IMG/VR virus record: IMGVR_UViG_3300042402_002792
DNA length: 64,000 bases
Strand: one strand, 5' to 3'
From: a virus
Lineage: Duplodnaviria > Heunggongvirae > Uroviricota > Caudoviricetes
The stretch's first letter is position 1, and each line of letters begins with the position of its first letter. The notes below the pieces were generated by a model. The model was not told the DNA's origin. It saw nothing but the letters and a program-made list of their open reading frames with translations, and searched no databases. The position numbers and the translations under genes were made by a program. Shown one piece after another: positions 496-55,555 of this stretch.

Positions 496-523
496 AGTTA
501 AGGATACTAACAGCAAAACCCTT

Positions 524-600: not shown

Positions 601-626
601 CTTTAAAATGTATCCTGTTTTTCTAT

Positions 627-1418: not shown

Positions 1419-1430
1419 GGTAAATATTGT

Positions 1431-2656: not shown

Positions 2657-3273
2657 CAATGTTTATTTTAGATAACTTTATTGATAGATACCACGCTGAT
2701 AAAATTGAACAAGAATTTTCTAGTAACAAATTTCCGTGGTATTATCTAGAACAATCATTGCCATTGCCAGCAGTAACTAGTTTTGTAAATACGTCAGTTT
2801 TTAGACATTCGTTTATTGTTGAAAATAAATCAAATTCGGATTATGTAAGTCTGTTAACTCCGTTCTTAGAAAAAATAACTAATATGTTTTCCAGTAAGAT
2901 TGAAGTAGCTTCAATTACTGCAAACTTCTTGACCCCAAATCAAGATCTTATTGGAAAACATATTATACCTCATTATGATGTAAAATATGAAAATAAAGTT
3001 TACAACGAATTTCAAACATACACAGGATTATATTATGTAAATGATAGTGATGGCGAAACTATCTTGTTTAACGAAAAACAAGATGATGAACCTATACTAT
3101 CATTTACTGAATTAGGTAGAGTAATTCCAAAGAAAAATAGATTTGTATTTTGGAACTCTCGGCACTATCATAGTGCTCCAGCATCAGCAACAAGGAATAG
3201 ATTCGTAATTAATTTTAATTTTATAGTTGAAAAAGGAAGTGTGGCAGAGCCCGGTTTATTGCAGCAGTCTTGA
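2653..3273 (+). CDS. 2OG-Fe(II) oxygenase-like paralog (PhyH-like pattern)
   Basis: 206 aa. Motifs HYD...HYHS...RxR. The 3' end overlaps the tRNA-Ser gene by about 39 nt. Confidence 0.5.
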   Translation: MTMFILDNFIDRYHADKIEQEFSSNKFPWYYLEQSLPLPAVTSFVNTSVFRHSFIVENKSNSDYVSLLTPFLEKITNMFSSKIEVASITANFLTPNQDLIGKHIIPHYDVKYENKVYNEFQTYTGLYYVNDSDGETILFNEKQDDEPILSFTELGRVIPKKNRFVFWNSRHYHSAPASATRNRFVINFNFIVEKGSVAEPGLLQQS

Positions 3274-3326
3274 AAACTGCCGGCTCCGAAAGGGGTCCGT
3301 GAGTTCGAATCTCACCGCTTCCACCA
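3235..3326 (+). tRNA. tRNA-Ser (anticodon TGA), class II
   Basis: Acceptor GGAAGTG/CGCTTCC. Anticodon stem GCAGT/ACTGC with loop CTTGAAA. 18-nt variable arm. T-arm GTGAG-TTCGAAT-CTCAC. CCA is encoded. Confidence 0.65.
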
Positions 3327-3332
3327 AATTAT

Positions 3333-3407
3333 CGCGGGGTACGTCAGTGGCAGACTATCGGGCTCATAACCCGAAAGACGGAGGTTCGAGTCCTTCCCCC
3401 GCAACCA
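3333..3407 (+). tRNA. Initiator tRNA-fMet (anticodon CAT)
   Basis: C1·A72 mismatch. Anticodon stem TCGGG/CCCGA (three G·C pairs next to the loop) with loop CTCATAA. T-arm GGAGG-TTCGAGT-CCTTC. CCA is encoded. Confidence 0.65.
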
Positions 3408-3412
3408 AATAT

Positions 3413-3511
3413 GCCGCCATAGCTTAATGGTAAAGAAGCGAGCTTATACCTCGCCAAAGCACAGGCCAGATAAGCCTGAGTGTGCAGGTTCGAGTCCTGC
3501 TGGCGGCACCA
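3413..3511 (+). tRNA. Oversized (99-nt) tRNA-like gene. The candidate anticodon arm is GCGAG-CTTATAC-CTCGC (anticodon TAT) and is followed by an unusually long (~29-nt) extra arm
   Basis: Perfect acceptor GCCGCCA/TGGCGGC and T-arm GCAGG-TTCGAGT-CCTGC. CCA is encoded. The interior contains a second hairpin, CAGGC-CAGATAA-GCCTG. Identity could not be resolved by eye. Confidence 0.35.
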
Positions 3512-3519
3512 AAATTTAT

Positions 3520-3597
3520 GTAGGGGTGGCAGAGAGGCCCAATGCAGTGGATTGCAAATCCGCAAAACCGTCGGTTCGAATCCGACTCCCTACTCCA
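3520..3597 (+). tRNA. tRNA-Cys (anticodon GCA)
   Basis: Acceptor GTAGGGG/TCCCTAC with discriminator U. Anticodon stem GTGGA/TCCGC with loop TTGCAAA. T-arm GTCGG-TTCGAAT-CCGAC. CCA is encoded. Confidence 0.55.
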
Positions 3598-3620
3598 TAA
3601 TAAAATATAAGTAGTATATT

Positions 3621-3697
3621 GCCCCGATGACGGAATTGGTATACGTGTTGGTCTTAGAAGCCAAATTTTGCGAGTTCGAGTCTCGCTTGGGGCACCA
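3621..3697 (+). tRNA. Class-I tRNA with anticodon TAG, formally Leu(CUA)
   Basis: Acceptor GCCCCGA/TTGGGGC. Anticodon stem TTGGT/GCCAA with loop CTTAGAA. Variable region is 5 nt. T-arm GCGAG-TTCGAGT-CTCGC. CCA is encoded. Confidence 0.45.
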
Positions 3698-3703
3698 AAT
3701 AAT

Positions 3704-3777
3704 GCGGGATTAGTTTAATGGTCAAACGAAACCTTGCCAAGGTTTAGTCAGGAGTTCGATTCTCCTATCCCGCTCCA
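3704..3777 (+). tRNA. tRNA-Gly (anticodon GCC)
   Basis: Perfect acceptor GCGGGAT/ATCCCGC. D-arm GTTT..AAAC. Anticodon stem AAACC/GGTTT with loop TTGCCAA. T-arm AGGAG-TTCGATT-CTCCT. CCA is encoded. Confidence 0.65.
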
Positions 3778-3792
3778 AACATGTAGGTTGCT

Positions 3793-5241
3793 ATGTATAA
3801 AATTGTTGTTGTTGGTGGAGGAACAGCTGGATTAATGGCTGCATCGTTTTTAAAATCTACATATGGTCCTCACGTAGATGTAACTGTAATCTATGATCAT
3901 AAAAATCCAGGAATAGGTGTTGGAGAAAGTTTAACTCCTATAATTTATGAATACTTAACTGCTGTCGGAATTACTAGAGAAGAACTTATTTTAAATGTTA
4001 ATGCTACAGTTAAATTAGGTTTAAAATTTAAGAACTGGTTAAATGACGGCGGGTACTACTGGCATCCATTTGTGCAAAAAGACTCACCTAGAAATGATAT
4101 CGATGCCGCATTTGATCTAGCACATAACACTTATGACTCAGATAATGGCTATAGTAGTTATTTTTTAGAATCAAATCGTATACCTAAACAATCCGGTACA
4201 CAGGCATTACATATTGATTCTGTTCTTTTTGCTAGATATATAGAACACAAATTTAAAGATAGAATTAATATTGTCGATGGTATTGTAGATGAAGTAAATG
4301 TAAGCGAACACAATCATATTACTCACGTTAGATTAACAGACGGTCGAGTATTTGACGGTAACTTTTTTGTTGATGCTAGCGGGATGCAGTATGCATTATT
4401 TAAACACTTAAATGTAAAATGGGTTGACAAATCAGACTGGCTACCAATTGATCGATGTATCCCAAATCCAGTTCCGTGGACATTTACAACACAGCCTACT
4501 TATACTACATCCGAAGCTAGCAAAGACGGATGGATATTACAAGTTCCGTTGAGTAATCGTTGGGGTACTGGGTACCTTTACTCTAGTCAATTTCAACAAG
4601 ATAACCGTGCTCACGATACATTTGATCAGTTTTTAAAAAATAACTACGGCACAGAACTTACAAGCTCAAGAGTAATTAAATTTAAAAGTGGCTTTTGGGA
4701 AGATCAATGGGTTGGTAATTGTATTGCTGTAGGATTGTCAAGTGGGTTTACCGAACCGTTAGAAGCTACAAACATACACCATGTTGTTTATCAATTATGG
4801 ATGTTTACTGAAATGTTTAATTTAGAAATACTTAATTACGATAGAAAAAAATATAATAAAATGATGACCAGTTTTTATAACAATGTCTATTTGTATCTTA
4901 GATTTTGTTATACTACAGGAAGAACCGATAGTGAATTTTGGAAATACATGACAGCAAACGTTCCCGAATCAGTTCGAGACTTAGAAGAAAAAATCTCACG
5001 TAACTCAATGAATACCTACTCATTACCAGGTACTGTGTTTTCGTATCATAACTTTACAAAAGTAGCTCACGGGTTAGGAAAAATTAATAGAATGAGCTAC
5101 CTAAACGAGCTCAGATTACGAAATATGATTGAACAAGCAAGGATTAAAGCAACTAAACTCAAAATTGAAAAATTAGTTGACTATGAGACTAGCATTGATC
5201 ATTTAGAATATATAAAATCGGTCCTTAACTCAACTGGATAG
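3793..5241 (+). CDS. FAD-dependent (tryptophan-type) halogenase-like protein
   Basis: 482 aa. N-terminal GxGxxG FAD-binding fold (VVVGGGTAGLMAASF) and a W-x-W/L-x-IP-like motif (DGWILQVP), giving an overall flavin-halogenase architecture. The 3' end overlaps the next tRNA. Confidence 0.55.
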   Translation: MYKIVVVGGGTAGLMAASFLKSTYGPHVDVTVIYDHKNPGIGVGESLTPIIYEYLTAVGITREELILNVNATVKLGLKFKNWLNDGGYYWHPFVQKDSPRNDIDAAFDLAHNTYDSDNGYSSYFLESNRIPKQSGTQALHIDSVLFARYIEHKFKDRINIVDGIVDEVNVSEHNHITHVRLTDGRVFDGNFFVDASGMQYALFKHLNVKWVDKSDWLPIDRCIPNPVPWTFTTQPTYTTSEASKDGWILQVPLSNRWGTGYLYSSQFQQDNRAHDTFDQFLKNNYGTELTSSRVIKFKSGFWEDQWVGNCIAVGLSSGFTEPLEATNIHHVVYQLWMFTEMFNLEILNYDRKKYNKMMTSFYNNVYLYLRFCYTTGRTDSEFWKYMTANVPESVRDLEEKISRNSMNTYSLPGTVFSYHNFTKVAHGLGKINRMSYLNELRLRNMIEQARIKATKLKIEKLVDYETSIDHLEYIKSVLNSTG

Positions 5242-5295
5242 AGTGCAAGTCTTCGAAACTTGAAGTTAGGGGTTCGAGTCCTCTAGGGCCGGCCA
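5219..5295 (+). tRNA. tRNA-Arg (anticodon TCG)
   Basis: Acceptor CGGTCCT/AGGGCCG. D-arm ACTC..GAGT. Anticodon stem CAAGT/ACTTG with loop CTTCGAA. T-arm AGGGG-TTCGAGT-CCTCT. CCA is encoded. The 5' end overlaps the last 23 nt of the halogenase CDS. Confidence 0.55.
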
Positions 5296-5298
5296 GTT

Positions 5299-5373
5299 GC
5301 CGCTGTAGTTCAATGGATAGAACAAGTTCCTCCTAAGAATTAGATGTAGGTTCGATTCCTGCCAGAGGCGCCA
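5299..5373 (+). tRNA. tRNA-Arg (anticodon CCT)
   Basis: Acceptor GCCGCTG/CAGAGGC with one mismatch. D-arm GTTC..GAAC. Anticodon stem AGTTC/GAATT with loop CTCCTAA. T-arm GTAGG-TTCGATT-CCTGC. CCA is encoded. Confidence 0.55.
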
Positions 5374-5379
5374 AACATG

Positions 5380-5408
5380 TTGACAACGAATCTGCTATTA
5401 TGTATAAT
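5380..5408 (+). promoter_or_regulatory. Perfect sigma70 consensus promoter TTGACA-N17-TATAAT. The predicted start coincides with the 5' end of the tRNA-like gene at 5415
   Basis: TTGACA at 5380-5385, a 17-nt spacer, TATAAT at 5403-5408. Confidence 0.55.
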
Positions 5409-5414
5409 TACATT

Positions 5415-5523
5415 GTAGCCGTAACGCAAATAGGCAAAGCTCCAATAGCAACATTGTATGTTGTGAGGGACGGGGTCGAATATAGTTCGGTAACCCATGG
5501 AGGTTCGAAGCCTCCCGGCTACA
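5415..5523 (+). tRNA. Oversized (109-nt) tRNA-like gene of unresolved identity. A candidate anticodon arm GCAAC-ATTGTAT-GTTGT would give anticodon TGT
   Basis: Perfect acceptor GTAGCCG/CGGCTAC and perfect T-arm GGAGG-TTCGAAG-CCTCC. No CCA is encoded. A long internal hairpin GGGTCGAA-TATAG-TTCGGTAACCC sits in the variable region. The D-region is irregular. Confidence 0.3.
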
Positions 5524-5536
5524 TAGGACATTAAAA

Positions 5537-6133
5537 ATGATTATAAGAAATGTATTTGATACCCCAGTTGTAATACATCATTGTCATGACGCAGAAATAT
5601 TTGCTAACAAATCTATCAGAGATAGTATAGAGTTTGTGTTTGGTCTAGAAGAAATTAGAGAAACTATTGATCCATCTCAAGTAGGAAATGCTTTTACAAC
5701 TTGCAATCATTTTGATAAATTTCCGTTGATCTCTATGCCCGGAACTGAAAACTTATCAGAATGGGTAGCTAGGAAAATATTAGAAAGCAGTAAACACTTT
5801 GGATTTGAAAATTCTACCAAAATAGAATTTTTGAGAACATGGATAAATCTTTACTTCTATGGTTGTGAAGGAACCTGCCATCATCATCCAACAGACATTG
5901 ACGGTGTGGGAATTTTTTATATAAAGGTTCCTTCTAATAGTAGCCAATTAGTTTTTATCCGTGACGGCATCGATGGTACTAAGATTAATCAATATCCACC
6001 AGAACAACTTGCGTTTCAACCTGTTGTACAAGGAGACCTGATTATTCACAATCCTAAGGTGCCACATGCTATTTCTCAACATAAAGCTCACGATTCACGA
6101 ATATGTTTTATATACGAGTTTAAATATCATTAA
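5537..6133 (+). CDS. Hypothetical protein, possibly a divergent 2OG oxygenase-like paralog
   Basis: 198-aa ORF. His-rich motifs (CHHHPTD ... VPHAISQH). An AAGGA-type ribosome-binding site is absent but the gene packing is tight. Confidence 0.4.
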   Translation: MIIRNVFDTPVVIHHCHDAEIFANKSIRDSIEFVFGLEEIRETIDPSQVGNAFTTCNHFDKFPLISMPGTENLSEWVARKILESSKHFGFENSTKIEFLRTWINLYFYGCEGTCHHHPTDIDGVGIFYIKVPSNSSQLVFIRDGIDGTKINQYPPEQLAFQPVVQGDLIIHNPKVPHAISQHKAHDSRICFIYEFKYH

Positions 6134-6222
6134 GGAGAGTTGGCAGAGTGGTAATGCACCGGATTGCTAATCCGCCGTTCATGAAAGTGGGCGCACAGGT
6201 TCGAGTCCTGTACTCTCCGCCA
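6134..6222 (+). tRNA. tRNA-Ser (anticodon GCT), class II
   Basis: Perfect acceptor GGAGAGT/ACTCTCC. Anticodon loop TTGCTAA. Long variable arm. T-arm ACAGG-TTCGAGT-CCTGT. CCA is encoded. Confidence 0.6.
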
Positions 6223-6233
6223 TTATTTGTTAT

Positions 6234-6815
6234 ATGAAAATATTTGATAAAGTTTTAGGTCAAAATGCTTTACAATCTTTACAAAAAGAGATTGTGCATA
6301 GCACAGCATTTCCATGGTATAAAACACTAACAACTTACGATTTGAAAGAACCGAATAGCATCAATGACTATAGTTGGTTTCACTTAGTATCAAAAGAAGG
6401 CGAAGTAGTTTCACAAGTCTATTCGTTGCTGTATCCTATGTTGCTATGTGCATTTGATAATATTAACGAACCTGTTAAAGATTTTATAAGATTACGGTTA
6501 GCATTGCAAACACCGATAGGTCAAAAGTTTGTAAATGATGCTCACACAGACTACGGCTTTGAACACAAGACAGCATTATTATATTTGAACACTTGCGATG
6601 GTAACACAATCATCTACAATGAAGCTTATGATCACAAATCGCAAATAAGTCCACTAGATTATTTAAATAACAACTTAAAAAATAATTTAACTGTATTAAG
6701 TGAAGTTGAACCAGTAGAAAATAGACTAGTGCTGTTTGATGGTTTACGTTATCATTCAAGTCAGCGTCCTATTAACTTTCCTTACAGAATTATTTTAAAC
6801 ATAAATTATAATTAA
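6234..6815 (+). CDS. 2OG-Fe(II) oxygenase-like paralog
   Basis: 193 aa. Motifs AHTD (HxD) and distal LRYHSSQR. Confidence 0.5.
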   Translation: MKIFDKVLGQNALQSLQKEIVHSTAFPWYKTLTTYDLKEPNSINDYSWFHLVSKEGEVVSQVYSLLYPMLLCAFDNINEPVKDFIRLRLALQTPIGQKFVNDAHTDYGFEHKTALLYLNTCDGNTIIYNEAYDHKSQISPLDYLNNNLKNNLTVLSEVEPVENRLVLFDGLRYHSSQRPINFPYRIILNINYN

Positions 6816-6823
6816 TATTTTAT

Positions 6824-6899
6824 TCCCTGATAGCTCAGTCGGTAGAGCGACGGACTGTTAATCCGCAGGTCCCTGGTTCGAGCCCAGGTCGGGGAGCCA
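6824..6899 (+). tRNA. tRNA-Asn (anticodon GTT)
   Basis: Acceptor TCCCTGA/TCGGGGA. D-arm GCTC-AGTCGGTA-GAGC. Anticodon loop CTGTTAA. T-arm CCTGG-TTCGAGC-CCAGG. CCA is encoded. Confidence 0.65.
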
Positions 6900-6914
6900 A
6901 ACAAAGAGGAAATT

Positions 6915-7232
6915 ATGAGCAAAGGTAGTAGACCTCGTCCATATAGTGTTAGTCAAAATACGTTTGCTAGCAACTACGATGCAATTTTTCGCAAGCCCGA
7001 TCCTAGGGTTCGAGAAGAATCTATTCAAGAAGACGAAGCATTTAAAGAATTAGAAAAAAGGAATACAATGAGTCCATCAGTAGAACAAATGAAACAAGGT
7101 ACGTGCGGGTGCGGCCGTAGCCCTACAGGAAACTGTTGTGGGTGGCATGCGCTAACAGAAGAACAATATCAGCAACGTAAAGAACTTTACGAAACTGGTA
7201 AAGCTGATTTGCAAGGTCGCGAAGTTAAGTAA
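6915..7232 (+). CDS. Hypothetical Cys-rich protein
   Basis: 105-aa ORF. Ribosome-binding site AAGAGGA. Cys cluster CGCGRSPTGNCCGWH. Confidence 0.45.
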   Translation: MSKGSRPRPYSVSQNTFASNYDAIFRKPDPRVREESIQEDEAFKELEKRNTMSPSVEQMKQGTCGCGRSPTGNCCGWHALTEEQYQQRKELYETGKADLQGREVK

Positions 7233-7235
7233 TCT

Positions 7236-7865
7236 TTGATGTTAAGCACAGTCCTTGATAAGATTAACACTGACGCTGTTCATTATCAACAGCAGGCCGT
7301 AAGCACTGACATTTTTTCTTGGGAAGAATTAGAACGCTTGTTAAATCTTAGGCCATTTGTTAATCATAAAAGATTTCACATACTTAATGATAAAAACTAC
7401 ACTTGGCATAATCCAGGATGGGCTAGTGACAATGGGTATCCTCCGTCTTTGATACAAGAAGAAATCAAAAAGTATGTTTGCTATTTGAGTGACTGTTCTA
7501 AAGTAAACAAATCAATTAATGAGTTGTGTAAACTGATTGAAAATCAGACAGGCAGCGAAGTTGATGCTCATGTTTATTTTTCGTTTTTCTATCAAGATCA
7601 AGACATAGAAAAATATATACACAAAGATAAATCTAATAATTTAATAATTCAAATTGATGGAGAGACTAACTTTAAGGTATTCGGGACTGATCGAAACAGC
7701 GATATTATCTTAGATGTAATTATGCAACCTGGGGATATGCTTTACATACCTGCAGGATATTGGCACGGTGCGCTAAGTCTGAGTCGTAGATTAAGCTTGA
7801 GTATTCCTATTAGTCCTCATCGAGTTGAAATACAAGAAGATAGACACTGGATACAATTAAAATGA
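7236..7865 (+). CDS. Cupin/JmjC-like protein
   Basis: 209 aa. A motif GDMLYIPAGYWHG typical of cupin/JmjC beta-barrel hydroxylases. Confidence 0.45.
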   Translation: MMLSTVLDKINTDAVHYQQQAVSTDIFSWEELERLLNLRPFVNHKRFHILNDKNYTWHNPGWASDNGYPPSLIQEEIKKYVCYLSDCSKVNKSINELCKLIENQTGSEVDAHVYFSFFYQDQDIEKYIHKDKSNNLIIQIDGETNFKVFGTDRNSDIILDVIMQPGDMLYIPAGYWHGALSLSRRLSLSIPISPHRVEIQEDRHWIQLK

Positions 7866-8479
7866 AATACGCTTACTTTAACCCTACTATTGTAGCAATG
7901 GACGATGTACCTGATGATATTTTTCAATGGTGTGTAAATGCTGTTGAGCAAGCACATCTCAGAGAAGATCTCAATGATGCTGGTAATCCAGTATTAAGTA
8001 TTCGAGGCGGCCAACAAGTACAAATACTGCCTAACGAAATGGGTATAGATATAGAGCCGTTGGCTAGATACATTGAAGATATATGCACTCAATATATTGA
8101 TTCTGTACGTGCAAGTGCCGGCATTACCGATGAATTGCCTGTTAAACCTGTATTAGTTAGTGCATGGACTTTAAAACAAGGTCCAGGAGACTATCAGGCA
8201 CTACATAGTCATGAAGCACACTTGAGCGGTAATATCTACATACAAGTTCCAGAACTTGATCTAGATTCTACTAATACAGATTCGTGTATTGAATTTAGAT
8301 TGCCTACTGTACGTAACCCGGCAAGATTTGTATTCACAGACACTTGGCGGTTCAAACCTGAACGTGCTAAAATAATAATGTTTCCTAGTTATCTTCCACA
8401 CACAGTTTATCCGTGGACGGGTAAAGGGCATAGAATTAGTTTAGCATGGGATGCCAAATTAATTGACAAGAGTATCTAA
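7862..8479 (+). CDS. 2OG-Fe(II) oxygenase-like protein
   Basis: 205 aa. Motifs HSHEAH ... PHTVYP ... RISLAWD (distal His plus RxS). Confidence 0.45.
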   Translation: MKYAYFNPTIVAMDDVPDDIFQWCVNAVEQAHLREDLNDAGNPVLSIRGGQQVQILPNEMGIDIEPLARYIEDICTQYIDSVRASAGITDELPVKPVLVSAWTLKQGPGDYQALHSHEAHLSGNIYIQVPELDLDSTNTDSCIEFRLPTVRNPARFVFTDTWRFKPERAKIIMFPSYLPHTVYPWTGKGHRISLAWDAKLIDKSI

Positions 8480-8491
8480 AAGATATATAAT
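8463..8491 (+). promoter_or_regulatory. Perfect sigma70 consensus promoter TTGACA-N17-TATAAT, placed upstream of tRNA-Thr, the structured RNA and tRNA-Gly
   Basis: TTGACA at 8463-8468, 17-nt spacer, TATAAT at 8486-8491. It is followed by AGACACA, as in the promoter at 10240. Confidence 0.55.
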
Positions 8492-8524
8492 AGACACAAG
8501 TTAGAAATTGTTCTTTAAAAATTT

Positions 8525-8599
8525 GCCGGATTAGCTCAGTGGTAGAGCAACCGCCTTGTAAGCGGTAGGTCGTCAGTTCAATCCCGACATCCGGCACCA
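8525..8599 (+). tRNA. tRNA-Thr (anticodon TGT)
   Basis: Perfect acceptor GCCGGAT/ATCCGGC. D-arm GCTC-AGTGGTA-GAGC. Anticodon stem ACCGC/GCGGT with loop CTTGTAA. T-loop TTCAATC. CCA is encoded. Confidence 0.65.
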
Positions 8600-8902
8600 A
8601 GAAAAACCCCGGTTTACTCTTTTACGTTATATAAAGAGCGTCCCTGTAACGATAGACCAGGGGGTACACTAGGACCTGACCTTACAGTCCCCGTTGGGGG
8701 ATACTGAAAACTGCCTAGGGTGAGGAACGCTAACCTCTTCCAAAAGAAGAAATACGTGGACAGAGTAACCGCTCAGTCTAGGGCTCATGTGGTGTGAGTA
8801 GCTAGACACTTTAATCAAATACATTTGGCTTAACTATAAGTTAAGTTGCAAGGACGGCACACCATCCGCAATGAAAAAGTGACAAGTGTGTTTGATTAAA
8901 GT
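8600..8902 (+). ncRNA. Highly structured ~300-nt non-coding RNA candidate lying between tRNA-Thr and tRNA-Gly
   Basis: No open reading frame. A 21-bp long-range helix (8802-8822 with 8879-8903). A perfect hairpin CTTAACT-ATA-AGTTAAG. Nested hairpins GTCTAGGGCTCA..TGAGTAGCTAGAC. CCCTG..CAGGG and CTCTTT..AAAGAG stems. This resembles the stable RNAs embedded in the T4 tRNA cluster. Confidence 0.35.
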
Positions 8903-8976
8903 GCGGGGTTAGTTTAATGGCAAAACAGCAGATTTCCAATCTTCGGTCGAGAGTTCGATTCTCTCACTCCGCTCCA
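8903..8976 (+). tRNA. tRNA-Gly (anticodon TCC)
   Basis: Acceptor GCGGGGT/ACTCCGC. D-arm GTTT..AAAC. Anticodon loop TTTCCAA. T-arm GAGAG-TTCGATT-CTCTC. CCA is encoded. Confidence 0.6.
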
Positions 8977-8987
8977 AAATATAAATT

Positions 8988-9620
8988 ATGGAATTAATAA
9001 CACATACAGCACCAAAACAAGGTATATCGTTTTTGGTAATTAAAAATTTATACTCTCAAAATGAGTTATTTTTAATCCAAAAAGAGTTAGACTTTCTTTG
9101 GAGTAGTCTTGCTTTTTCAAGAGATGAGGACTATCTAAATGTTGCAAAATTAGATGACGGATCAATATTAGGTAAAAGAAGTGGTGTTTGGTTAGATTTT
9201 TTCTATAACAAACGAGAAAGTTCTAGTATATTACGACTTAATCGAAAACCATTTTCAGACGATACAATAAGAAATACATTTGCTAATTTGAATCCATATC
9301 ATTTTCATTATCTTAAATTAGATTATGATAATACTTTACTTCAGTATTATGAAAATTCGGATTATTATAAACCGCACACTGATCATTCTATGTTTAGTTT
9401 AGTGACATGGTTTCATAAAGATCCAAAAAAATTTACTGGAGGAAATTTTAAGTTTACAGATTTAGACTATACAATTGAAATTGAAAATAATATGTGTGTA
9501 ATCTTTCCAAGTTTCTTGTGGCACGAAGTAGAAGAAATTAAAATAACAGAAACTAGTAAATATGAGCCAAATGGAAGATTTTCAATGACTCAATTTGTAG
9601 TGTATAATCCAACAAAATAG
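8988..9620 (+). CDS. 2OG-Fe(II) oxygenase (prolyl-4-hydroxylase-like pattern)
   Basis: 210 aa. Motifs HTD ... WHEV ... RFS (HxD...H...RxS). Confidence 0.55.
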   Translation: MELITHTAPKQGISFLVIKNLYSQNELFLIQKELDFLWSSLAFSRDEDYLNVAKLDDGSILGKRSGVWLDFFYNKRESSSILRLNRKPFSDDTIRNTFANLNPYHFHYLKLDYDNTLLQYYENSDYYKPHTDHSMFSLVTWFHKDPKKFTGGNFKFTDLDYTIEIENNMCVIFPSFLWHEVEEIKITETSKYEPNGRFSMTQFVVYNPTK

Positions 9621-9948: not shown

Positions 9949-10024
9949 GGGGGATTAGCTCAGCTGGGAGAGCGGTAGCTTTGCAAGCTATAGGTCAACG
10001 GTTCGATCCCGTTATCCTCCACCA
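9949..10024 (+). tRNA. tRNA-Ala (anticodon TGC)
   Basis: Acceptor GGGGGAT/ATCCTCC including a G3·U70. D-arm GCTC-AGCTGGGA-GAGC. Anticodon stem GTAGC/GCTAT with loop TTTGCAA. T-arm AACGG-TTCGATC-CCGTT. CCA is encoded. Confidence 0.65.
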
Positions 10025-10041: not shown

Positions 10042-10242
10042 ATGAAAACGCAAGTTAAAACAAGACCCGTTCGCCTACGTAATATTCGGAATAATCAAGA
10101 AGTTATCTGCGATGATTATACCAATGTTCGGACTATCGACGGGCAGGACTTCGTTGAAGTCCATTTTGAAAATCAAACTCGTAAATTTTGGCTTAACAAA
10201 GCACCCTTACAAAAGGTAAAAGAGAAGTCCAAAAAGAGTTGA
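10042..10242 (+). CDS. Small basic hypothetical protein of 66 aa
   Basis: AGGAG ribosome-binding site 7 nt upstream of the ATG. Lys/Arg-rich. Confidence 0.5.
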   Translation: MKTQVKTRPVRLRNIRNNQEVICDDYTNVRTIDGQDFVEVHFENQTRKFWLNKAPLQKVKEKSKKS

Positions 10243-10268
10243 CAAAGATTAAGATCTATACTATAATA
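10240..10268 (+). promoter_or_regulatory. Perfect sigma70 consensus promoter TTGACA-N17-TATAAT driving a ~500-nt non-coding leader or RNA upstream of the TROVE-like gene
   Basis: TTGACA at 10240-10245, 17-nt spacer, TATAAT at 10263-10268. Confidence 0.55.
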
Positions 10269-10274
10269 GACACA

Positions 10275-10781
10275 TAGCAAGCAGAAATGCTTGTAGAGAG
10301 TTTTAGGATCGGTACAGCAACATTCATATTACTATGGATCGTTGGACCCTATGGTAGTCAGCTGGAGTTGAAAGGTTCGCCTGGAGACTGTGAAGGTTGC
10401 TATTGAAATAGACCAACAAGCACAGAGTGATGGCCTGTGTAAAATAAAAGCAGTCAACAACGATCCTGTTAGTTTTGGATGACTACAGCAATTTAAATCA
10501 ATCGAACTAAAGCTATAGAAGGTGGCCGCGGGGCACAGTAGAAATACTGTTTTAGAAATAGACGCTCAAGGAATAGCTAGGCCGGCAAAGCCCGGATATG
10601 ATTTACATACAGAAAAATATGTAATAGGCAACATGAATGTTGCTAGGGTCTGAGTGCCGTAATTGGTCAGACCAGAAAATAAACAAATTGGCACGATCAT
10701 CCTGTTAAAGTTTTAGAATGTTAACAGCAACTTTAAATTTTCAAGCATATCGAAAAAAAATACATTCTGTGAGGTAATAAA
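10275..10781 (+). ncRNA. Candidate ~500-nt structured non-coding RNA, possibly Y-RNA-like given its Ro60/TROVE-like neighbour, or a long structured 5' UTR
   Basis: No open reading frame of 60 aa or more on the plus strand across ~500 nt downstream of a consensus promoter. Multiple hairpins (CAAGCA-GAAA-TGCTTG, GGTCTGA..TCAGACC, GCAACAT..ATGTTGC). A T-loop-like GGTTCGCC. Two copies of the ATCCTGTTA..TAACAGCAA hairpin motif. Confidence 0.3.
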
Positions 10782-12191
10782 ATGAACGCATTTGTAAACG
10801 CAATCGCAAATCAAGAAGCCCGTACCGCAAACGGTATGAAGGCACGTAAGTCAACAGCTAAGGCTACCGTTGACCTGTTCTACAACATCGGTGCAAGCCG
10901 TGGTAAGGACATCACAGGCGACTTCACAGCCGCTTATGTGGAAAACGCAGACGTAGCATTACGCATCGCACAATGGGCACGTGATGTCCGAGGTGGTGCA
11001 GGTGAACGTCAACTGTTCCGTGATATTCTAGTTCATCTAGAAAAGCGTGACCCAGACGCCGCTTTGGCTCTTCTAAAGAAGATTCCAGAAGTTGGACGTT
11101 GGGATGACATCTTTGTCTTCACCAACCCTGTTCTGAAGTCAGCCGCTTATACCATGTTGGGCGATGCCCTTCGTGCTAATAACGGTCTGGCTGCAAAGTG
11201 GACCCCCCGTAAGGGTCAAATTGCCGCTGAGATTCGTGCCTTCTTTGGCATGACTCCGAAGCAATATCGTAAGAGCCTTGTTGCTCTTACCAAGGTGGTT
11301 GAAACCCAGATGTGTGCTAACGACTGGGATAACATCAACTTTAGCCATGTTCCTTCTGTGGCTGCTCGCAACTACAAGAAGGCATTCAACCGTCACACTC
11401 CTCTGTTCGCAGAGTATGTGGCCAAGTTGGTGGCAGGGGATAAGACTGTTAAGGTTAACGCCAGCGCAATCTTCCCACATGATGTCCTAAAGGGCATCGC
11501 ACACAGCTACACTAAGCTGAACAAGACAGAAACCGACCATGTGATTGCACAATGGGACGCTCTGCCTAACTATGTAGGTGACGCAAGTATCCTACCTCTA
11601 GTTGACGTTTCTGGTTCGATGACAACATCTGTTCCAGGTTCAACTGTTCGCTGTTTAGATGTAGCAGTCGGTCTAGGCTTGTATCTTGCAGATAAGAACA
11701 AGGGTGTGTTCAAGGACACGTTCTTGACTTTCTCAAGCAAGCCACAACTGGCTACTCTAAAGGGTAACATTGTTGCAAAGGTTGACCAAATGTCAAGTAG
11801 CAACTGGGAAATGAGCACTAACTTGCATGCCGCTATGGACAAGATCCTAAGCGTTGCAGTTAAGGGTTCAGTACCGGCTAGTGACATGCCAAAGATGTTA
11901 CTCATCTTGAGTGACATGCAGTTTAACCAATGTGCTCGTTTCGACGACTCAGCAATGCAAATGATTGAACGAAAGTTCGCAGATGCAGGTTACACTGTTC
12001 CGCAAATTGTTTTCTGGAACCTAAACAGTTCTGGCAACGTGCCTGTAAAGGCAGACAAGAGTGGCGCGGCACTGGTAAGTGGTTTTAGTCCAAGCATCAT
12101 GACAGCTCTGTTGTCAGCGGATATGGACCAATTCACTCCAGAAGGTATCATGATGAAGACTGTAATGGTTCCTCGTTATGACCTTAACTAA
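10782..12191 (+). CDS. Ro60/TROVE-like or DUF2828-like protein with a C-terminal vWA (MIDAS) domain
   Basis: 469 aa. MIDAS motif DxSxS (LVDVSGSMTT) within a vWA-like C-terminal half, and a helical N-terminal half. Noticeably GC-richer than its neighbours. AGGTAAT ribosome-binding site. Confidence 0.5.
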   Translation: MNAFVNAIANQEARTANGMKARKSTAKATVDLFYNIGASRGKDITGDFTAAYVENADVALRIAQWARDVRGGAGERQLFRDILVHLEKRDPDAALALLKKIPEVGRWDDIFVFTNPVLKSAAYTMLGDALRANNGLAAKWTPRKGQIAAEIRAFFGMTPKQYRKSLVALTKVVETQMCANDWDNINFSHVPSVAARNYKKAFNRHTPLFAEYVAKLVAGDKTVKVNASAIFPHDVLKGIAHSYTKLNKTETDHVIAQWDALPNYVGDASILPLVDVSGSMTTSVPGSTVRCLDVAVGLGLYLADKNKGVFKDTFLTFSSKPQLATLKGNIVAKVDQMSSSNWEMSTNLHAAMDKILSVAVKGSVPASDMPKMLLILSDMQFNQCARFDDSAMQMIERKFADAGYTVPQIVFWNLNSSGNVPVKADKSGAALVSGFSPSIMTALLSADMDQFTPEGIMMKTVMVPRYDLN

Positions 12192-12210
12192 AAAGTATTA
12201 ACTTTTGAAA

Positions 12211-12236
12211 TAGCACCTTCGGGTGCTATTTTTTTA
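12211..12236 (+). terminator. Rho-independent terminator
   Basis: Hairpin TAGCACC-TTCG-GGTGCTA followed by T7. Confidence 0.6.
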
Positions 12237-12238
12237 GG

Positions 12239-12267
12239 TTGACGTAGCCAAAGTTTGGTGCTATAAT
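12239..12267 (+). promoter_or_regulatory. Perfect sigma70-type promoter TTGACG-N17-TATAAT. The ATG at 12274 lies 6 nt after the -10 element, implying a leaderless transcript
   Basis: TTGACG at 12239-12244, 17-nt spacer, TATAAT at 12262-12267. Confidence 0.5.
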
Positions 12268-12465
12268 ATGTGTATGTACAAAGTAATAAACAAAGAAATA
12301 GAAACAGAATTTCCTAGCTTAGATGCGGCAATGGCCTATGCTAAGACTTTAGATGCTTTTGTTAGTATCACAGGAAGCGAATTTGAAATCGTAGGTAAGT
12401 TTGGCGTTGATGAAGTAGCTGATCCAAACTACGACGGATGGATATCTAGAAAACAAGGAGTGTAA
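12268..12465 (+). CDS. Small hypothetical protein, probably initiating at ATG 12274 as a leaderless mRNA
   Basis: 65-aa ORF. A second in-frame ATG at 12274 coincides with the predicted transcription start. Confidence 0.45.
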   Translation: MCMYKVINKEIETEFPSLDAAMAYAKTLDAFVSITGSEFEIVGKFGVDEVADPNYDGWISRKQGV

Positions 12466-12466
12466 A

Positions 12467-12958
12467 ATGCCGTGGATTGAAAATGTAAGTTTGGGAGATA
12501 TCCCAAAAGGTCGGCATCACCTTGCTGGCGAGAATAGTATGCTAATTCAGATTGTTGATCCCGGCATGGAGTTTCCTCACCCTATGCACAAGTTCAAAGA
12601 GACACATCGATTTCAGTTTCTGGACCTTGAGGTAGGTGATGCATTTGGTGAAGAATTTAAAGTCACCGATGCTCAGGCGGACCTACTTGTCAGACTATTA
12701 CAACATGCATTGGACAAAAGAATGAATGTAGTTGTTCACTGTGTTGCAGGAGTGTGCCGGTCGGGTGCGGTCTGTGAGGTTGGTGTAATGATAGGCTTTA
12801 ATGATACTGAAGTTTTTCGTAGTCCTAACTTAATGGTCAAGCATAAGATGATGAAAGTTTTAGGTTGGACTTATGATGAAAACGAAGCGCACACTATTAA
12901 TGGTGTAATTTTAGATTCTGGGCTTATTGTGCCTAAGAACTACGAAGGTGATATTTAA
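12467..12958 (+). CDS. Dual-specificity (Cys-based, CX5R) phosphatase
   Basis: VVVHCVAGVCRSGAV matches the VHCxAGxxRSG DSP/PTP P-loop signature. 163 aa. Confidence 0.65.
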   Translation: MPWIENVSLGDIPKGRHHLAGENSMLIQIVDPGMEFPHPMHKFKETHRFQFLDLEVGDAFGEEFKVTDAQADLLVRLLQHALDKRMNVVVHCVAGVCRSGAVCEVGVMIGFNDTEVFRSPNLMVKHKMMKVLGWTYDENEAHTINGVILDSGLIVPKNYEGDI

Positions 12959-12973
12959 AGAAAGGAGGGCAAG

Positions 12974-13579
12974 ATGCCTAGTGTATTTTTAGTTAGCGAC
13001 ACGCATTTCGGACATACCGGCGTCTGTCGCTTCACACGTAACGATGGTGTTACAAAGTTACGCCCATGGGATAGTCCTGAAGAAATGGACGAAGCTATGA
13101 TCAAGGCGTGGAACGAGCGAGTTAAACCCACTGACAAGGTCTACCACTTGGGCGATGTTGTCATCAACCGTAAGGCCATGTCAACGTTAGCTCGTTTAAA
13201 CGGCGACAAGGTTTTAATCCGCGGCAACCACGACATCTTCCGTGACGACGAGTACAGACAGTACTTTAGAGAATTACGTGCATACCATGTTATGAACGGA
13301 ATGATCTTAAGTCACATTCCTGTACATAGTGATAGCTTAGGACGTTTTGGAGTTAACATTCACGGACACTTACACGCAAACCGCGTTAAGAAGGCCCGTG
13401 GTGTTGATGCACGTACAGGAGAGATCTTATACAGCGATGAGAACGATGTTCGTTACCATTGTGTCTGCGTAGAGCAAACACCTAACTTTGCTCCTATATT
13501 GTTTGAAGAAGTAATTGCACGGATTGAAGCAGAAGGTGGCACAGTTGGTTTTAAAAACGGCAACGGCCCTACAATGTAA
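12974..13579 (+). CDS. Calcineurin-like metallophosphoesterase
   Basis: Motifs DTHFGH, GDVV, GNHD and GHLH. AAGGAGG ribosome-binding site. Confidence 0.65.
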   Translation: MPSVFLVSDTHFGHTGVCRFTRNDGVTKLRPWDSPEEMDEAMIKAWNERVKPTDKVYHLGDVVINRKAMSTLARLNGDKVLIRGNHDIFRDDEYRQYFRELRAYHVMNGMILSHIPVHSDSLGRFGVNIHGHLHANRVKKARGVDARTGEILYSDENDVRYHCVCVEQTPNFAPILFEEVIARIEAEGGTVGFKNGNGPTM

Positions 13580-13683
13580 AGAAAAAGAATGTCTTATCGT
13601 AAATATTATTTTAAACAAATGATTAGGACCGTTAAGGCATTCTTACTGTATACCAAAGGGTTTGTTTTAAATAGGAAAATATA

Positions 13684-14145
13684 ATGTCAAAATGTTATCA
13701 GTTAATCGGAGTACCGGCAAGCGGAAAAAGTACCTGGGCCGAAGCTCAAGACTGGGCGCATCTTTGTGCCCACATTAGCACAGACAAATGGGTAGAAATC
13801 TTTGCTAAAGAGATTGGCAGTACTTATAGTCAAGTGTTTACAGACTTTATGCCTACTGCTGTAGAACTTATGGCTAAAGAAGTTGTTGTTGCTCGAGACA
13901 TGGGACGAGATATTATTTGGGACCAAACTAGCACTACTGTAAAAAGTCGTACTAAGAAATTTGCTATGTTGCCAGATTATTATCATATTGCTGTGGTATT
14001 TAAAATACCCGAGCATAAAGAACTTTACCGCAGACTACTTAGCCGGCCAGGCAAGGATATTCCAGATCATGTTATTGCCAGCATGATTGCTAATTTCGAA
14101 ATGCCTACAGAAGAAGAAGGATTTAAAGAAATATGGTACGTATAA
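13684..14145 (+). CDS. Polynucleotide 5'-kinase, matching the T4 Pnk/PseT N-terminal kinase domain only
   Basis: Walker A GVPASGKSTWAEA compared with T4 Pnk GCPGSGKSTWAREF. IIWDQTSTT compared with T4 IISDTNLN. 153 aa, about the kinase-domain length. No HAD phosphatase domain is present. Confidence 0.6.
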   Translation: MSKCYQLIGVPASGKSTWAEAQDWAHLCAHISTDKWVEIFAKEIGSTYSQVFTDFMPTAVELMAKEVVVARDMGRDIIWDQTSTTVKSRTKKFAMLPDYYHIAVVFKIPEHKELYRRLLSRPGKDIPDHVIASMIANFEMPTEEEGFKEIWYV

Positions 14146-14876
14146 TTTTACTTTTATTATTTGTAACACAGAGTGCTTTTGCTCAGCAATGGACGTCAAT
14201 AGAATATTTTGATAAACCGATTCCGATTAAATTTTTTAAATCTGAAAAATCTGGTAAAAACCCTACAGTGTTAATAGTGCATGGAACAGCTGGCGTTTCG
14301 AACAGAGAAGAAAATTGGGCAAGATTTTTTCATAAAAATTCTTATAATGTGTTAATAGTTGATTTTAAAACAGGAAGATTTACTAGTCCACAAGATCGTA
14401 ATAAGGTAAATTTTGAAGGACTTGTTACGTGGACACATCAATGGTTAAAAGATCATCCAGAAGTAGACCCAAATAATATTACTTATATGGGACTAAGTTT
14501 AGGAGGATTTTTAGGTTTTTGGTTAGATAATACAGCCGCATTTAACAACTATATTTTGTTTTACCCAGGATGCTTTCATCTATTAAATAGAAGAGAAGGC
14601 CTTGTTGTAAAGGAAAGAATCAATCCTACATTAATAATATGGGGAGAATCGGACAGTTATGAAGAAGGAACTTACTGTCCTAGAGTTTTAAATAAAATGA
14701 ACGGAAAGGTTTCTGGGCATTCTATTCCTAATGCCGGACATGGATTTGATGGCGATAGATTTGTATCTTCATTTTCTGATCCAGCTAGCCCTAGTGGTCG
14801 AGCAAGTTTAGAACCAAATAACAATGCTTTAAATAGTTCTAGACAAAAAATAATAGAATTTTTATCAATTAAATAA
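14133..14876 (+). CDS. Secreted alpha/beta hydrolase (dienelactone-hydrolase-like)
   Basis: Signal peptide MVRIILLLLFVTQSAFA. GxSxG nucleophile elbow (GLSLGG). 247 aa. Confidence 0.5.
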   Translation: MVRIILLLLFVTQSAFAQQWTSIEYFDKPIPIKFFKSEKSGKNPTVLIVHGTAGVSNREENWARFFHKNSYNVLIVDFKTGRFTSPQDRNKVNFEGLVTWTHQWLKDHPEVDPNNITYMGLSLGGFLGFWLDNTAAFNNYILFYPGCFHLLNRREGLVVKERINPTLIIWGESDSYEEGTYCPRVLNKMNGKVSGHSIPNAGHGFDGDRFVSSFSDPASPSGRASLEPNNNALNSSRQKIIEFLSIK

Positions 14877-20814: not shown

Positions 20815-21344
20815 GGTTTATTCCATTCTTTAAGAACATTTTTATCACCGTAGTATAGTACATGTTGATAACAATCCGATGCATCTCCTTCACAGACCCA
20901 GATGTTTTCTCCTACAAAAAAATCTAAATTAATTTTTTTTAAATCTGAGATCATTTTATAAAATAATCTTTTATTTTTATTACGTGTAATAATTGCTATT
21001 CTAAAATTTGGTTGTTGCTTGCACCAAGAAATTTGTTCAGAAATCATTTCATATAATCCATCATTGATTGACTTTTGAACTGCTGTAACCCTAGGATATT
21101 GCCATGTCCTATTTAAAATTCTATAAGATCCTACAGGCCACCAATCTCGTCTATAGACTGTACTAAAGATTGTAGGATCTTGAGTTTGATTTTTTTTAAA
21201 ATATGTTAATATTTCTTGCTCATCTAAATTGAAACGTTCATCGCTATAATTTAAAGCAAGTTTGCTAGGCAAAGTTGATTGTATTTTCTTATACTGTTCG
21301 AAAACATAACGTCGAGGATCTCGACTGTCAAATAATTCTACCAT
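20805..21344 (-). CDS. Hypothetical protein
   Basis: 179-aa ORF whose start/stop overlaps its neighbours. Confidence 0.4.
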   Translation of the reverse strand: MVELFDSRDPRRYVFEQYKKIQSTLPSKLALNYSDERFNLDEQEILTYFKKNQTQDPTIFSTVYRRDWWPVGSYRILNRTWQYPRVTAVQKSINDGLYEMISEQISWCKQQPNFRIAIITRNKNKRLFYKMISDLKKINLDFFVGENIWVCEGDASDCYQHVLYYGDKNVLKEWNKPCR

Positions 21345-21349
21345 AAATC

Positions 21350-22099
21350 TTAATAGGTATCAAGATGTGATATACCTATTTTTTCTCTAAAGTCATCAGT
21401 AAATTTGCCGTCAATTCTTAAACTATATGTATAGGTTGATATGGCATCACCGCCGTGCCAGTCTAAACTATTAAAAAAGGCAGCTGGGGTATCTATATAA
21501 GTTTTTTCTTTAGTATCAGGATCTAATAGCCAAAACTTTTTTTTACCAGTAGGGTTAATCCAAACAAATTCTTCCCTATGTGGGAAATATTTAGGAGCAT
21601 CTCGATGTACTTGTAAAGTACAATCGTGTTCATTTAAAAAGAATACTATTCTACCTACATCTTCAAAAATTTTAATTTGATAAATCCATTCTAGTAATTT
21701 TGGGAAGTGTTCAGCATTTTCAGTAACTTCTGTATGTTCTGATCTGCCTTTTAAAAAATAATTTTCTAATCTTTTTTCTGGAGGCATATCACGTAATGTT
21801 ACCACTCTACTAGCATTGTACATTTCTTCGTACAGTTTAAAAAACACAGCACGTTGATCCCAATTAAGAGAATTAAAAATTTCTTTATCAAACTCATCAT
21901 GAGAAATTTTGTATTGTTTTGCTAAATCCATAAAAGATTTGCGTTGTTGAAGGTCCCCTAATCCTACACCATATATAGTAGTGCTTGTTTTACTTTTAGC
22001 TAGACCATAACATATTTCTTTATGTAAGGATTGTAAGGTACTTAGATCAATAAAATTAGTTAAATCAATATAGGATTGATTGTTTATACCCTTTAACAT
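21350..22099 (-). CDS. 2OG-Fe(II) oxygenase-like protein
   Basis: Motifs HRD ... WHGG (HxD plus distal His). Confidence 0.4.
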   Translation of the reverse strand: MLKGINNQSYIDLTNFIDLSTLQSLHKEICYGLAKSKTSTTIYGVGLGDLQQRKSFMDLAKQYKISHDEFDKEIFNSLNWDQRAVFFKLYEEMYNASRVVTLRDMPPEKRLENYFLKGRSEHTEVTENAEHFPKLLEWIYQIKIFEDVGRIVFFLNEHDCTLQVHRDAPKYFPHREEFVWINPTGKKKFWLLDPDTKEKTYIDTPAAFFNSLDWHGGDAISTYTYSLRIDGKFTDDFREKIGISHLDTY

Positions 22100-55554: not shown

Positions 55555-55555
55555 T

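Follow-up and report, generated by a model that had tools for sequence, protein, structure and literature searches.

Ro60 proteins and the Y RNAs that they bind are the closest described counterparts of the locus reported here. They include bacterial YrlA and Yrn1 and YrlA-like RNAs of mycobacteriophages. YrlA is encoded beside rsr, and phage Ro60 proteins bind adjacent Y-like RNAs, as in Thermus phage phiLo, whose Ro60 binds the adjacent Yrl1 and Yrl2 RNAs and recruits PNPase (PMC4201824, PMC12135203). Another protein with a Ro60-like structure, gp130 of the Felixounavirus Bas63, is encoded directly 5′ of a tRNA cluster and counters the ppl defence; its authors raised the idea that some of the ‘tRNAs’ are Y RNAs as speculation only, and defined no RNA motif (preprint, PMC11482910). 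Here we describe, in a stretch of 64,000 nucleotides (nt) of viral DNA from IMG/VR record IMGVR_UViG_3300042402_002792 (hereafter the window), a Ro-like gene of the DUF2828 family that is preceded by structured RNA modules with a shared ACAGCAA core. For the Ro-like proteins of the DUF2828 family, we know of no RNA partner described before.

The window belongs to a freshwater metagenomic phage contig of ~364 kb, and a megablast search of the locus against sequenced phages gave no match, so that the locus has no close relative there. A preliminary description of this DNA had proposed a Ro60/TROVE-like protein with a Y-RNA-like non-coding RNA of ~500 nt, followed by enzymes that would heal RNA ends. 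Its observation is confirmed and its interpretation partly supported, with the locus in part kin to the Ro60/Y RNA systems. What is new is a defined, searchable RNA motif with clear covariation, which adjoins the DUF2828 gene across very distant phages and is absent from Rfam 15. The best explanation, to which we give a probability of roughly 0.6, is that a Ro60-fold protein acts together with ACAGCAA modules that serve as Y-RNA analogues and, at its own gene, as an autoregulatory operator. The Ro-like gene and its leader read as a single predicted transcription unit (10239-12232), composed as follows:

10239 to 10267, plus strand: sigma-70-type promoter, TTGACA-17-TATAAT, with 12 of 12 consensus positions.
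10277 to 10294, plus strand: 5′-terminal hairpin of the transcript (GCAAGCA, loop GAAA, UGCUUGU), read from the sequence.
10304 to 10468, plus strand: RNA module A, from the module scan (5′ strand of the closing helix, P1a, 10304-10311; ACAGCAA core 10314-10320; 3′ strand, P1b, 10461-10468).
10475 to 10704, plus strand: RNA module B (P1a 10475-10482, core 10485-10491, P1b 10697-10704).
10714 to 10769, plus strand: RNA module C, a minimal module in the 5′ untranslated region (UTR) (P1a 10714-10721, core 10724-10730, P1b 10762-10769).
10771 to 10774, plus strand: Shine-Dalgarno sequence GAGG of the Ro-like gene, read from the sequence.
10782 to 12191, plus strand: protein of 469 aa with a predicted Ro60 fold, DUF2828/DUF7788 family (phrog_850), from Pfam, PHROG and structure prediction with Foldseek.
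12207 to 12232, plus strand: intrinsic-terminator-like hairpin (11-bp stem) with a T run, which ends the unit.

The protein at 10782-12191 resembles Ro60 in its predicted structure, a ring of HEAT-like helical repeats joined to a vWA domain. Its AlphaFold2 (AF2) model, built from an alignment of 66 homologues, has a mean predicted local distance difference test (pLDDT) score of 91.5 and a predicted template-modelling (pTM) score of 0.90. In a Foldseek search of the PDB, the ten best matches of this model are all Ro60/TROVE structures (E 2.4e-8 to 3.3e-6), including Xenopus 1yvr and 2i91, human 9nep, Deinococcus Rsr 2nvo and Thermus phage phiLo 9kop and 9l5y, with TM scores of at most 0.63 over the whole protein (~500 aligned columns); after a gap, the next matches are isolated vWA domains with E of 0.02 or more. 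The adhesion site dependent on metal ions (MIDAS; DxSxS...T...D, residues D275, S277, S279, T346 and D378) is intact, invariant in the 66 homologues and aligned with the Ro60 MIDAS in the profile alignment.

By sequence family, the protein differs from Ro60. It matches DUF7788 (4e-49) and DUF2828 (1.1e-26) in Pfam, and phrog_850, ‘RNA-binding protein’, at 3.3e-140 over residues 1-467; there is no match to Pfam TROVE, and vWA_Ro60 stays below its threshold (E 0.039, 14.3 bits against a cut-off of 27.7). The Ro60 structures are only 12-17% identical to it, phmmer found nothing in the PDB, and a sequence profile ranked Ro60 first at a marginal E of 0.06. The proposed likeness to Ro60/TROVE thus holds for the fold, and the suggested DUF2828 relationship stands, but membership of the TROVE sequence family does not. 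The DUF2828 family itself is large, with 6,249 cluster representatives (exhaustive search, clusters at 50% identity) and homologues in at least 706 sequenced phage records, including Felixounavirus, Listeria phage A511 and cluster L mycobacteriophages; in public annotation, mycobacteriophage homologues are already named ‘Ro-like RNA binding protein’.

The leader of this gene consists of three tandem structured RNA modules and is not one RNA of ~500 nt. The promoter noted in the preliminary description matches the consensus throughout, transcription is predicted to start near 10274, and the interval 10243-10781 holds no open reading frame (ORF) of more than 44 aa, which gives a leader of ~510 nt. 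The hairpin at its 5′ end is kept in related loci with other stems, such as ACAAUAG/CUAUUGU, and the layout from promoter to modules recurs in related loci and in Bacillus phage Tsamsa. In a comparison of 80 related contigs, the segments 10262-10471 and 10472-10698 are each present, absent or swapped as a unit, while the last 80 nt of the leader are kept in every contig compared. With its conservation and modularity in over 70 related contigs and its covarying helices, the leader is more than a chance stretch of sequence.

Each module has its own character inside the shared closing helix (P1). Module A encloses an ornate domain of ~140 nt and is present or absent among relatives as a whole unit; 24 distinct homologues were found, and all 29 of 29 sequences retain P1, with changes that compensate one another. 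A mixed alignment of module A types yielded a poor consensus beyond P1 and was discarded for that purpose. The interior of module B is a structured domain of ~205 nt, for which RNAalifold, given 27 homologues, predicts a consensus of 41 pairs, 23 of them with compensatory changes; a possible pseudoknot (GUGCC 10654-10658 with GGCAC 10690-10694) was seen by eye only. Module C, with a small hairpin followed by an A-rich tract, ends 1 nt before the Shine-Dalgarno sequence. Its order of P1b, UG and purine-rich Shine-Dalgarno sequence is found also in phages DLP_6, phiN3 and Kae01, and in 68 of 72 related clade loci a module ends 15-19 nt 5′ of the ATG.

Two other ways of folding the leader were dropped. 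As a single RNA it has a z-score of only -2.4 and misleading long-range structure, and the modular reading was adopted instead; its repeats, when read as local hairpins (CUGUUA/UAACAG) across the module junctions, gave way to the covarying helix that closes each module. An Rfam search of 10275-10781 gave nothing at gathering scores or at E <= 10, with Y_RNA, YrlA, ROOL, GOLLD and ribozymes included, and neither Rfam nor folding indicated a tRNA-like part in modules A, B or C. The Y-RNA-like RNA that had been proposed is supported in another form: not as one 500-nt RNA or a member of those Rfam families, but as three modules that share their closing stem and ACAGCAA core with YrlA-like RNAs.

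The ACAGCAA modules are real structured RNA elements. Read from the alignments, they follow the rule 5′-UUUUA-(P1a)-NN-ACAGCAA-Y...variable...A-rich-(P1b)-UGUUA-3′, where P1 is an 8-bp closing helix of a U-G pair, an A-U pair and six covarying pairs. Together with P1, the 5′ junction NN-ACAGCAA-Y and the A-rich 3′ junction form a constant base, and on this base stands a variable head: in some modules a small hairpin, in others a permuted tRNA like that of YrlA, or an ornate domain of 150-230 nt; the linkers between modules are U-rich and, as we read the alignments, resemble RNase E sites. A scan with this rule, run over both strands of 85 loci and of the window, gave 230 modules on the strand of the gene against 4 on the opposite one. 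The variants of P1 between modules and phages are all compensatory (GGAUCG/CGAUCC, GAUUAG/CUAAUC, GGUUAG/CUAACC, GGCUAG/CUAGCC, GAAUGU/ACAUUC). In an unguided alignment of 60 minimal modules, standard pairs fill 99.8% of the P1 cells, and 48 double changes were observed against 10.6 in shuffles; in a second set of 39 more diverse modules, seven of the eight P1 pairs show compensatory change. None of 500 shuffles reached the observed value in either set, and over both sets standard pairs make up 99.3-99.8% of cells, against 25-55% in controls with slid positions.

Since the modules are gained and lost unit by unit at a repeated junction sequence, they could be seen as small selfish or recombining repeats that spread in tRNA regions without a function of their own. 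The compensatory changes in the helix, the conservation of the core across distant phage families and the fixed position relative to the start codon all speak against this idea, which we consider highly improbable. In public records, the modules are either unannotated or annotated as tiny ‘hypothetical proteins’: such coding sequences overlap modules at 4519-4608 and 4738-4866 of the locus from Staphylococcus phage S-CoN_Ph11 (L208) and at 9409-9537 of that from Pseudomonas phage Milchi (L003); these are probably RNA genes with a wrong annotation.

On the same strand as the gene, the modules accompany DUF2828 genes in very distant phages. We used two covariance models, R1, which was built from modules of the window's own phage clade only, and R2, whose training left out the loci on which it was then run. 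Models from other phages place modules within ~150 nt of the DUF2828 ORF in phages of Listeria, Bacillus, Staphylococcus, Enterococcus and Campylobacter, in a cyanophage and in a mycobacteriophage. R1, which scores module C at 81.5 bits, finds two modules just 5′ of gp57 of Listeria phage A511 (E 1.7e-7 and 1.2e-6), four in the tRNA cluster of Milchi, and further ones in cyanophage BUCT-ZZ01 and Escherichia coli phage VpaE1; the modules of Milchi and VpaE1 sit in tRNA clusters that adjoin the DUF2828 gene. R2 finds modules in the promoter-driven leader of Tsamsa gp247 (E 2.8e-7), three in tandem directly 3′ of the S-CoN_Ph11 DUF2828 gene (E 1e-6), and others directly 5′ of the DUF2828 genes of Enterococcus phage VRE9_4 and Campylobacter phage F374. 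All 20 of the R2 matches with E <= 2 are on the gene's strand. As a negative control, the tRNA region of phage T5 (45 kb, 25 tRNAs, no DUF2828 homologue) gave no match below E 0.5. Because the same motif stands beside the DUF2828 gene in many unrelated phages, it is probably the RNA partner of the phage DUF2828 Ro-like proteins.

Modules also occur away from the gene. In IMG/VR, a pattern scan located the motif almost exclusively in tRNA-dense DNA (107 of 118 motif-selected loci), often with DUF2828 homologues, down to 42% identity, nearby. In the window, two stand-alone modules lie within the tRNA cluster:

275 to 332, plus strand: minimal ACAGCAA module between tRNA-Ile and tRNA-Gln (P1 UAGGAUGC/GCAUCCUG, core 285-291).
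501 to 616, plus strand: ACAGCAA module with a permuted tRNA, between tRNA-Val and tRNA-His, from ARAGORN, Rfam YrlA and the fold.

The first of these scores 65.8 bits with R1 (E 8e-12). The interior of the second is a circularly permuted version of a tRNA-Thr(UGU)-like RNA, with an anticodon arm, a T arm, an acceptor stem closed by UCCAA and a D arm; with its halves swapped, ARAGORN reads it as tRNA-Thr(UGU), and its minimum-free-energy fold agrees with the permuted layout. Alone among the modules of the window, it has the order of T arm, closed acceptor stem and D arm that is the layout of YrlA, and it matches the Rfam YrlA model at 33.4 bits (E 4.5e-6), over model positions 23-87 only and below the gathering score of 69. 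Mycobacteriophage Jubie offers a second case: three tandem ACAGCAA-based modules lie just 3′ of its ‘Ro-like’ gene, and the middle one matches the full YrlA model at 39.3 bits (E 2.4e-7).

In related contigs, the permuted-tRNA module exists in Cys-like, Leu-like or anticodon-arm-less versions, and such variant or degenerate anticodon arms favour mimicry over a working tRNA. A role as precursor of a functional tRNA was considered for 501-616 and is unlikely, given the normal tRNA-Thr(UGU) at 8525-8599 and the degenerate or missing anticodon arms of the relatives. One related locus (L026) carries at 3157-3271 a module whose permuted tRNA is degenerate, with a T arm, a stem closed by UUCG, a D arm and half an anticodon arm, directly 5′ of a homologue of a 66-aa ORF of the window; modules are therefore not exclusive to the DUF2828 leader.

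These placements bear on two further explanations. According to the first, the modules are generic ‘punctuation’ for the processing or stability of transcripts from phage tRNA regions, recognised by host or phage RNases, and are near DUF2828 only because that gene lies in the tRNA region. The modules between tRNA genes, the tRNA-dense surroundings of the IMG/VR loci, the L026 module ahead of another ORF and the U-rich, RNase E-site-like linkers would all fit. However, the T5 tRNA cluster has no module, the best matches in mycobacteriophages and in phages of Listeria, Staphylococcus, Bacillus, Campylobacter and Enterococcus abut the DUF2828 ORF and not tRNAs, and the sequence core persists among hosts with widely differing RNases; we regard punctuation as an unlikely account of the modules. 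The second explanation takes the leader as a purely cis-regulatory 5′ UTR, a sensor or attenuator of DUF2828 translation that involves no trans-acting RNA. Here the conserved spacing of 1 nt between the last module and the Shine-Dalgarno sequence, and the sharing of one promoter and one terminator by leader and ORF, are as expected. This explanation is nevertheless improbable, in view of modules 3′ of the gene in Jubie, S-CoN_Ph11 and VpaE1, the stand-alone modules between tRNAs, the gain and loss of modules A and B among relatives while C persists, and the tRNA mimics in some modules.

The reading of the modules as Y-RNA analogues can be weighed by direct comparison with Ro60 and Y RNAs. In both systems, small RNAs encoded on the same strand adjoin the gene, often several in tandem, and are closed by a stem of their 5′ and 3′ ends, and the protein has a HEAT-repeat ring and a vWA domain with a MIDAS; at least one module also has a tRNA-like domain in the YrlA order. 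Unlike Y RNAs, the modules have far more varied heads (40 to 230 nt), stand inside the gene's own 5′ leader, with one at the ribosome-binding site, and have extra copies scattered through the tRNA cluster.

Several points weigh against this reading. The base of the modules consists of ACAGCAA and an A-rich strand, and the CGAA or GNCGAAN0-1G motif of Ro60-bound Y RNAs was not found there by eye. The leader itself has no Y_RNA or YrlA match, both YrlA matches mentioned above are below the gathering score and rest largely on the tRNA-like parts, and the tRNA-like module of VpaE1 (5365-5501 of locus L205) has no Rfam YrlA match. Modules that lie between tRNAs, 10 kb from the gene, and the L026 module could have a role unrelated to the protein. 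Finally, R1 and R2 gave no significant match beside the DUF2828 genes of Vibrio phage PVA23, Sinorhizobium phage phiN3 and Klebsiella phage Kae01. By eye, the start site has a short ACAGCAA stem in phiN3 (ahead of the Shine-Dalgarno sequence) and in PVA23 (overlapping the ATG), and Kae01 shows a stem whose core is a variant.

If the Ro60-fold protein and the modules do work together, a possible mechanism can be outlined. The constant base would be the putative binding site of the Ro-like protein, much as Ro60 binds Y RNAs by their terminal stem. Modules A and B would be released from their transcript, whose U-rich linkers resemble RNase E sites, as would the stand-alone modules of the tRNA cluster. 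Once free, these modules would serve as analogues of Y RNAs and carry tRNA-like or other RNA heads to the ring formed by the protein. Module C, at the ribosome-binding site, would allow surplus protein to repress its own translation; its layout suggests an autoregulatory operator. Autoregulatory operators in mRNA that mimic the RNA ligand of the protein are found in thrS and in ribosomal-protein operons, and module C would resemble them, judging by this layout, as a copy of the presumed ligand at the ribosome-binding site of the protein's own mRNA. The system would probably serve to protect the phage's own pool of tRNAs or to control its quality, or else to counter host defences that act on RNA.

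A more ambitious proposal is that the modules are a new, widespread and modular class of Y-like RNAs, dedicated to a phage DUF2828 paralogue of Ro, with interchangeable heads and an operator copy, and that the resulting particle guards tRNAs or disarms RNA-acting defences such as ppl. We hold this proposal tentatively, at slightly less than even odds. It is of interest here that Felixounaviruses share the family: the window protein and its homologue in VpaE1 share 38% identity, and by way of VpaE1, a sister phage of Bas63, and not by aligning gp130 itself, Bas63 gp130 would be a homologue too, which would tie one family member already to a counter-defence phenotype. The VpaE1 modules at 4880-4951 and 5365-5501 (L205) are candidates for the ‘Y RNA among tRNAs’ that was proposed for Bas63. 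The motif makes it testable, in tractable phages, what Ro-like proteins bind and why they are encoded in tRNA clusters. A single protein-binding base with many RNA heads would, if true, be of interest to RNA biology and engineering.

Structured non-coding RNAs among phage tRNA genes are also known as ROOL, GOLLD and the T5 RNAs RNAI, RNAIII, RNA1, RNA2 and RNAX, and in this setting the modules are like them. Rfam detects neither ROOL nor GOLLD in the window, and a search of the T5 tRNA region with the module model gives no module. That region has eight annotated stable RNAs in its tRNA cluster, at 10285-13950 and 20849-21567 of the T5 locus (L214), some of them tRNA-like; by model search they are unrelated to the ACAGCAA module. 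Several other loci hold RNAs that deserve mention. In Listeria phage A511, positions 1507-2058 (L206) match ROOL with 87.5 bits (E 3e-16), narrowly short of the gathering score (99.1), ~1 kb 5′ of the DUF2828 gene gp57 and between a tRNA and three ACAGCAA modules. Cyanophage BUCT-ZZ01 has an unannotated transfer-messenger RNA gene at 737-1137 (L001), matched as permuted or beta-type with 94-112 bits, and several unannotated tRNAs around its DUF2828 gene. For the VpaE1 module at 5365-5501, folding predicts a hairpin that resembles a T arm (GAAGGUUCGAUUCCUUC), a closed stem and a hairpin that resembles a D arm.

Downstream of the Ro-like gene lies a second group of genes, which may heal RNA ends, although its link to the Ro-like protein is weaker than that of the RNA modules:

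12239 to 12267, plus strand: second promoter, TTGACG-17-TATAAT with an extended TG, 11 of 12 consensus positions.
12268 to 12465, plus strand: ORF of 65 aa, first gene of the predicted downstream operon; no family match; downstream in 31 of 106 related loci.
12467 to 12958, plus strand: putative phosphatase of the protein-tyrosine/dual-specificity phosphatase (PTP/DSP) fold with HCVAGVCRSG (CX5R), sub-threshold for DSPc; downstream in 71 of 106 related loci.
12974 to 13579, plus strand: calcineurin-type metallophosphoesterase (phrog_547), from Metallophos and PHROG.
13684 to 14145, plus strand: P-loop kinase of 153 aa, assigned to the polynucleotide-kinase group (AAA_33) by Pfam, TIGR04075, phrog_505 and a profile search of the PDB.

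The terminator-like hairpin at 12207-12232 and the promoter at 12239-12267 divide the Ro-like gene and the enzymes into two transcription units. The enzymes largely agree with what had been claimed for them. The phosphatase has the expected CX5R motif, but its match to Pfam DSPc is below the cut-off (3.5e-6, 27.3 bits against 33.5), and its best PDB matches, dual-specificity phosphatases, are weak (E ~0.09). The calcineurin-type phosphoesterase is above the cut-off for Metallophos (30.7 bits against 21.5), matches phrog_547 at 3.6e-49, shows the metal-binding motifs DTHF, GD, GNHD and GHLH and is PdeM/YfcE-like. The kinase, whose predicted likeness to T4 Pnk was borne out by profile searches, matches AAA_33 (1.1e-16), the TIGR04075 Pnkp kinase domain (1.1e-5) and phrog_505 (4.6e-10), and its profile finds CthPnkp (3.7e-4), Pnkp1 (1.9e-3), T4 Pnk (3.2e-3) and PSTK (7e-3) in the PDB. 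All 14 PDB matches, with modest E-values, are polynucleotide kinases or the tRNA kinase PSTK, the relatives being only CthPnkp, Pnkp1, T4 Pnk, mammalian PNKP and PSTK, and profile evidence thus assigns the protein to the polynucleotide-kinase group.

As in T4 Pnk and Pnkp(-Hen1), the kinase has a Walker A motif (GVPASGKST, residues 9-17), an Asp after strand 2 and an Arg-rich lid; Asp34 is a candidate catalytic Asp only, being one column off the Pnkp1 Asp in the printed alignment (Pnkp1 residues 12-158). A metallophosphoesterase is encoded beside it as a further point of likeness. Unlike Pnkp, however, the kinase stands alone, with no fused 3′-phosphatase domain in its 153 aa; the phosphoesterase is a separate, small, YfcE/PdeM-like protein and not the phosphatase domain of Pnkp; no ligase or Hen1 partner was found; and the E-values of the kinase are modest (1e-5 to 4e-4). 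Its AF2 model (pLDDT 53.8) is too poor for a fold search.

The preliminary description had combined Ro-like protein, RNA, phosphatase, phosphoesterase and kinase into a single RNA end-healing pathway, a split Pnkp with a Ro/Y-RNA partner. Part of this finds support in the membership of the kinase in the polynucleotide-kinase group and in the layout of the clade loci, 60-71 of 106 of which have the three enzymes within 3.5 kb 3′ of the gene and on its strand. Other phages provide hints in the same direction: VRE9_4 has a phosphoesterase homologue (phrog_547, E 1e-10) ~700 nt 3′ of DUF2828, Kae01 has an RNA ligase gene directly 5′ of DUF2828, and mycobacteriophage LeBron encodes Pnk and RNA ligase besides a Ro-like protein (PMC13148394). 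Yet the enzymes lie behind a terminator and under their own promoter, vary in order and spacing, and are conserved as neighbours only in the window's phage clade, being absent near distant DUF2828 homologues. The ATP-dependent ligase that had been noted at 33840 is present, but it is a DNA ligase (33840-35153; DNA_ligase_A_M and OB_2) and not an RNA ligase, and a single tblastn query, the Kae01 RNA ligase, found no match in the window, which does not prove absence. The neighbours of DUF2828 in DLP_6 were considered as counterparts and rejected: the ‘kinase’ there is unrelated to that of the window, and the metallophosphoesterase gives a short local match only (E 0.018). A single pathway is, on balance, doubtful.

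The surroundings of the locus are rich in tRNA genes. The first 10 kb of the window contain 25 of them on the plus strand, and the locus follows directly 3′ of the last (tRNA-Ala, 9949-10024) and the 66-aa ORF. Genes of 2OG-Fe(II) oxygenase, JmjC and halogenase types stand among these tRNAs, as follows for the halogenase:

3793 to 5241: tryptophan-halogenase-like gene within the tRNA cluster.

At least six 2OG-Fe(II) oxygenase, JmjC or DUF6445 genes are interleaved with the cluster at 1359-9620, odd company for tRNAs. At 3413-3508, Rfam recognises a tRNA of 96 nt (59.5 bits) that ARAGORN does not report and that may contain a long insertion or an arm of unusual type. An ORF for an alpha/beta-hydrolase (14133-14876), dienelactone-hydrolase-like and with a signal-like N-terminus, overlaps the kinase gene at its end, and farther along, at 55511-63010, the window holds one ORF of ~2,500 aa.

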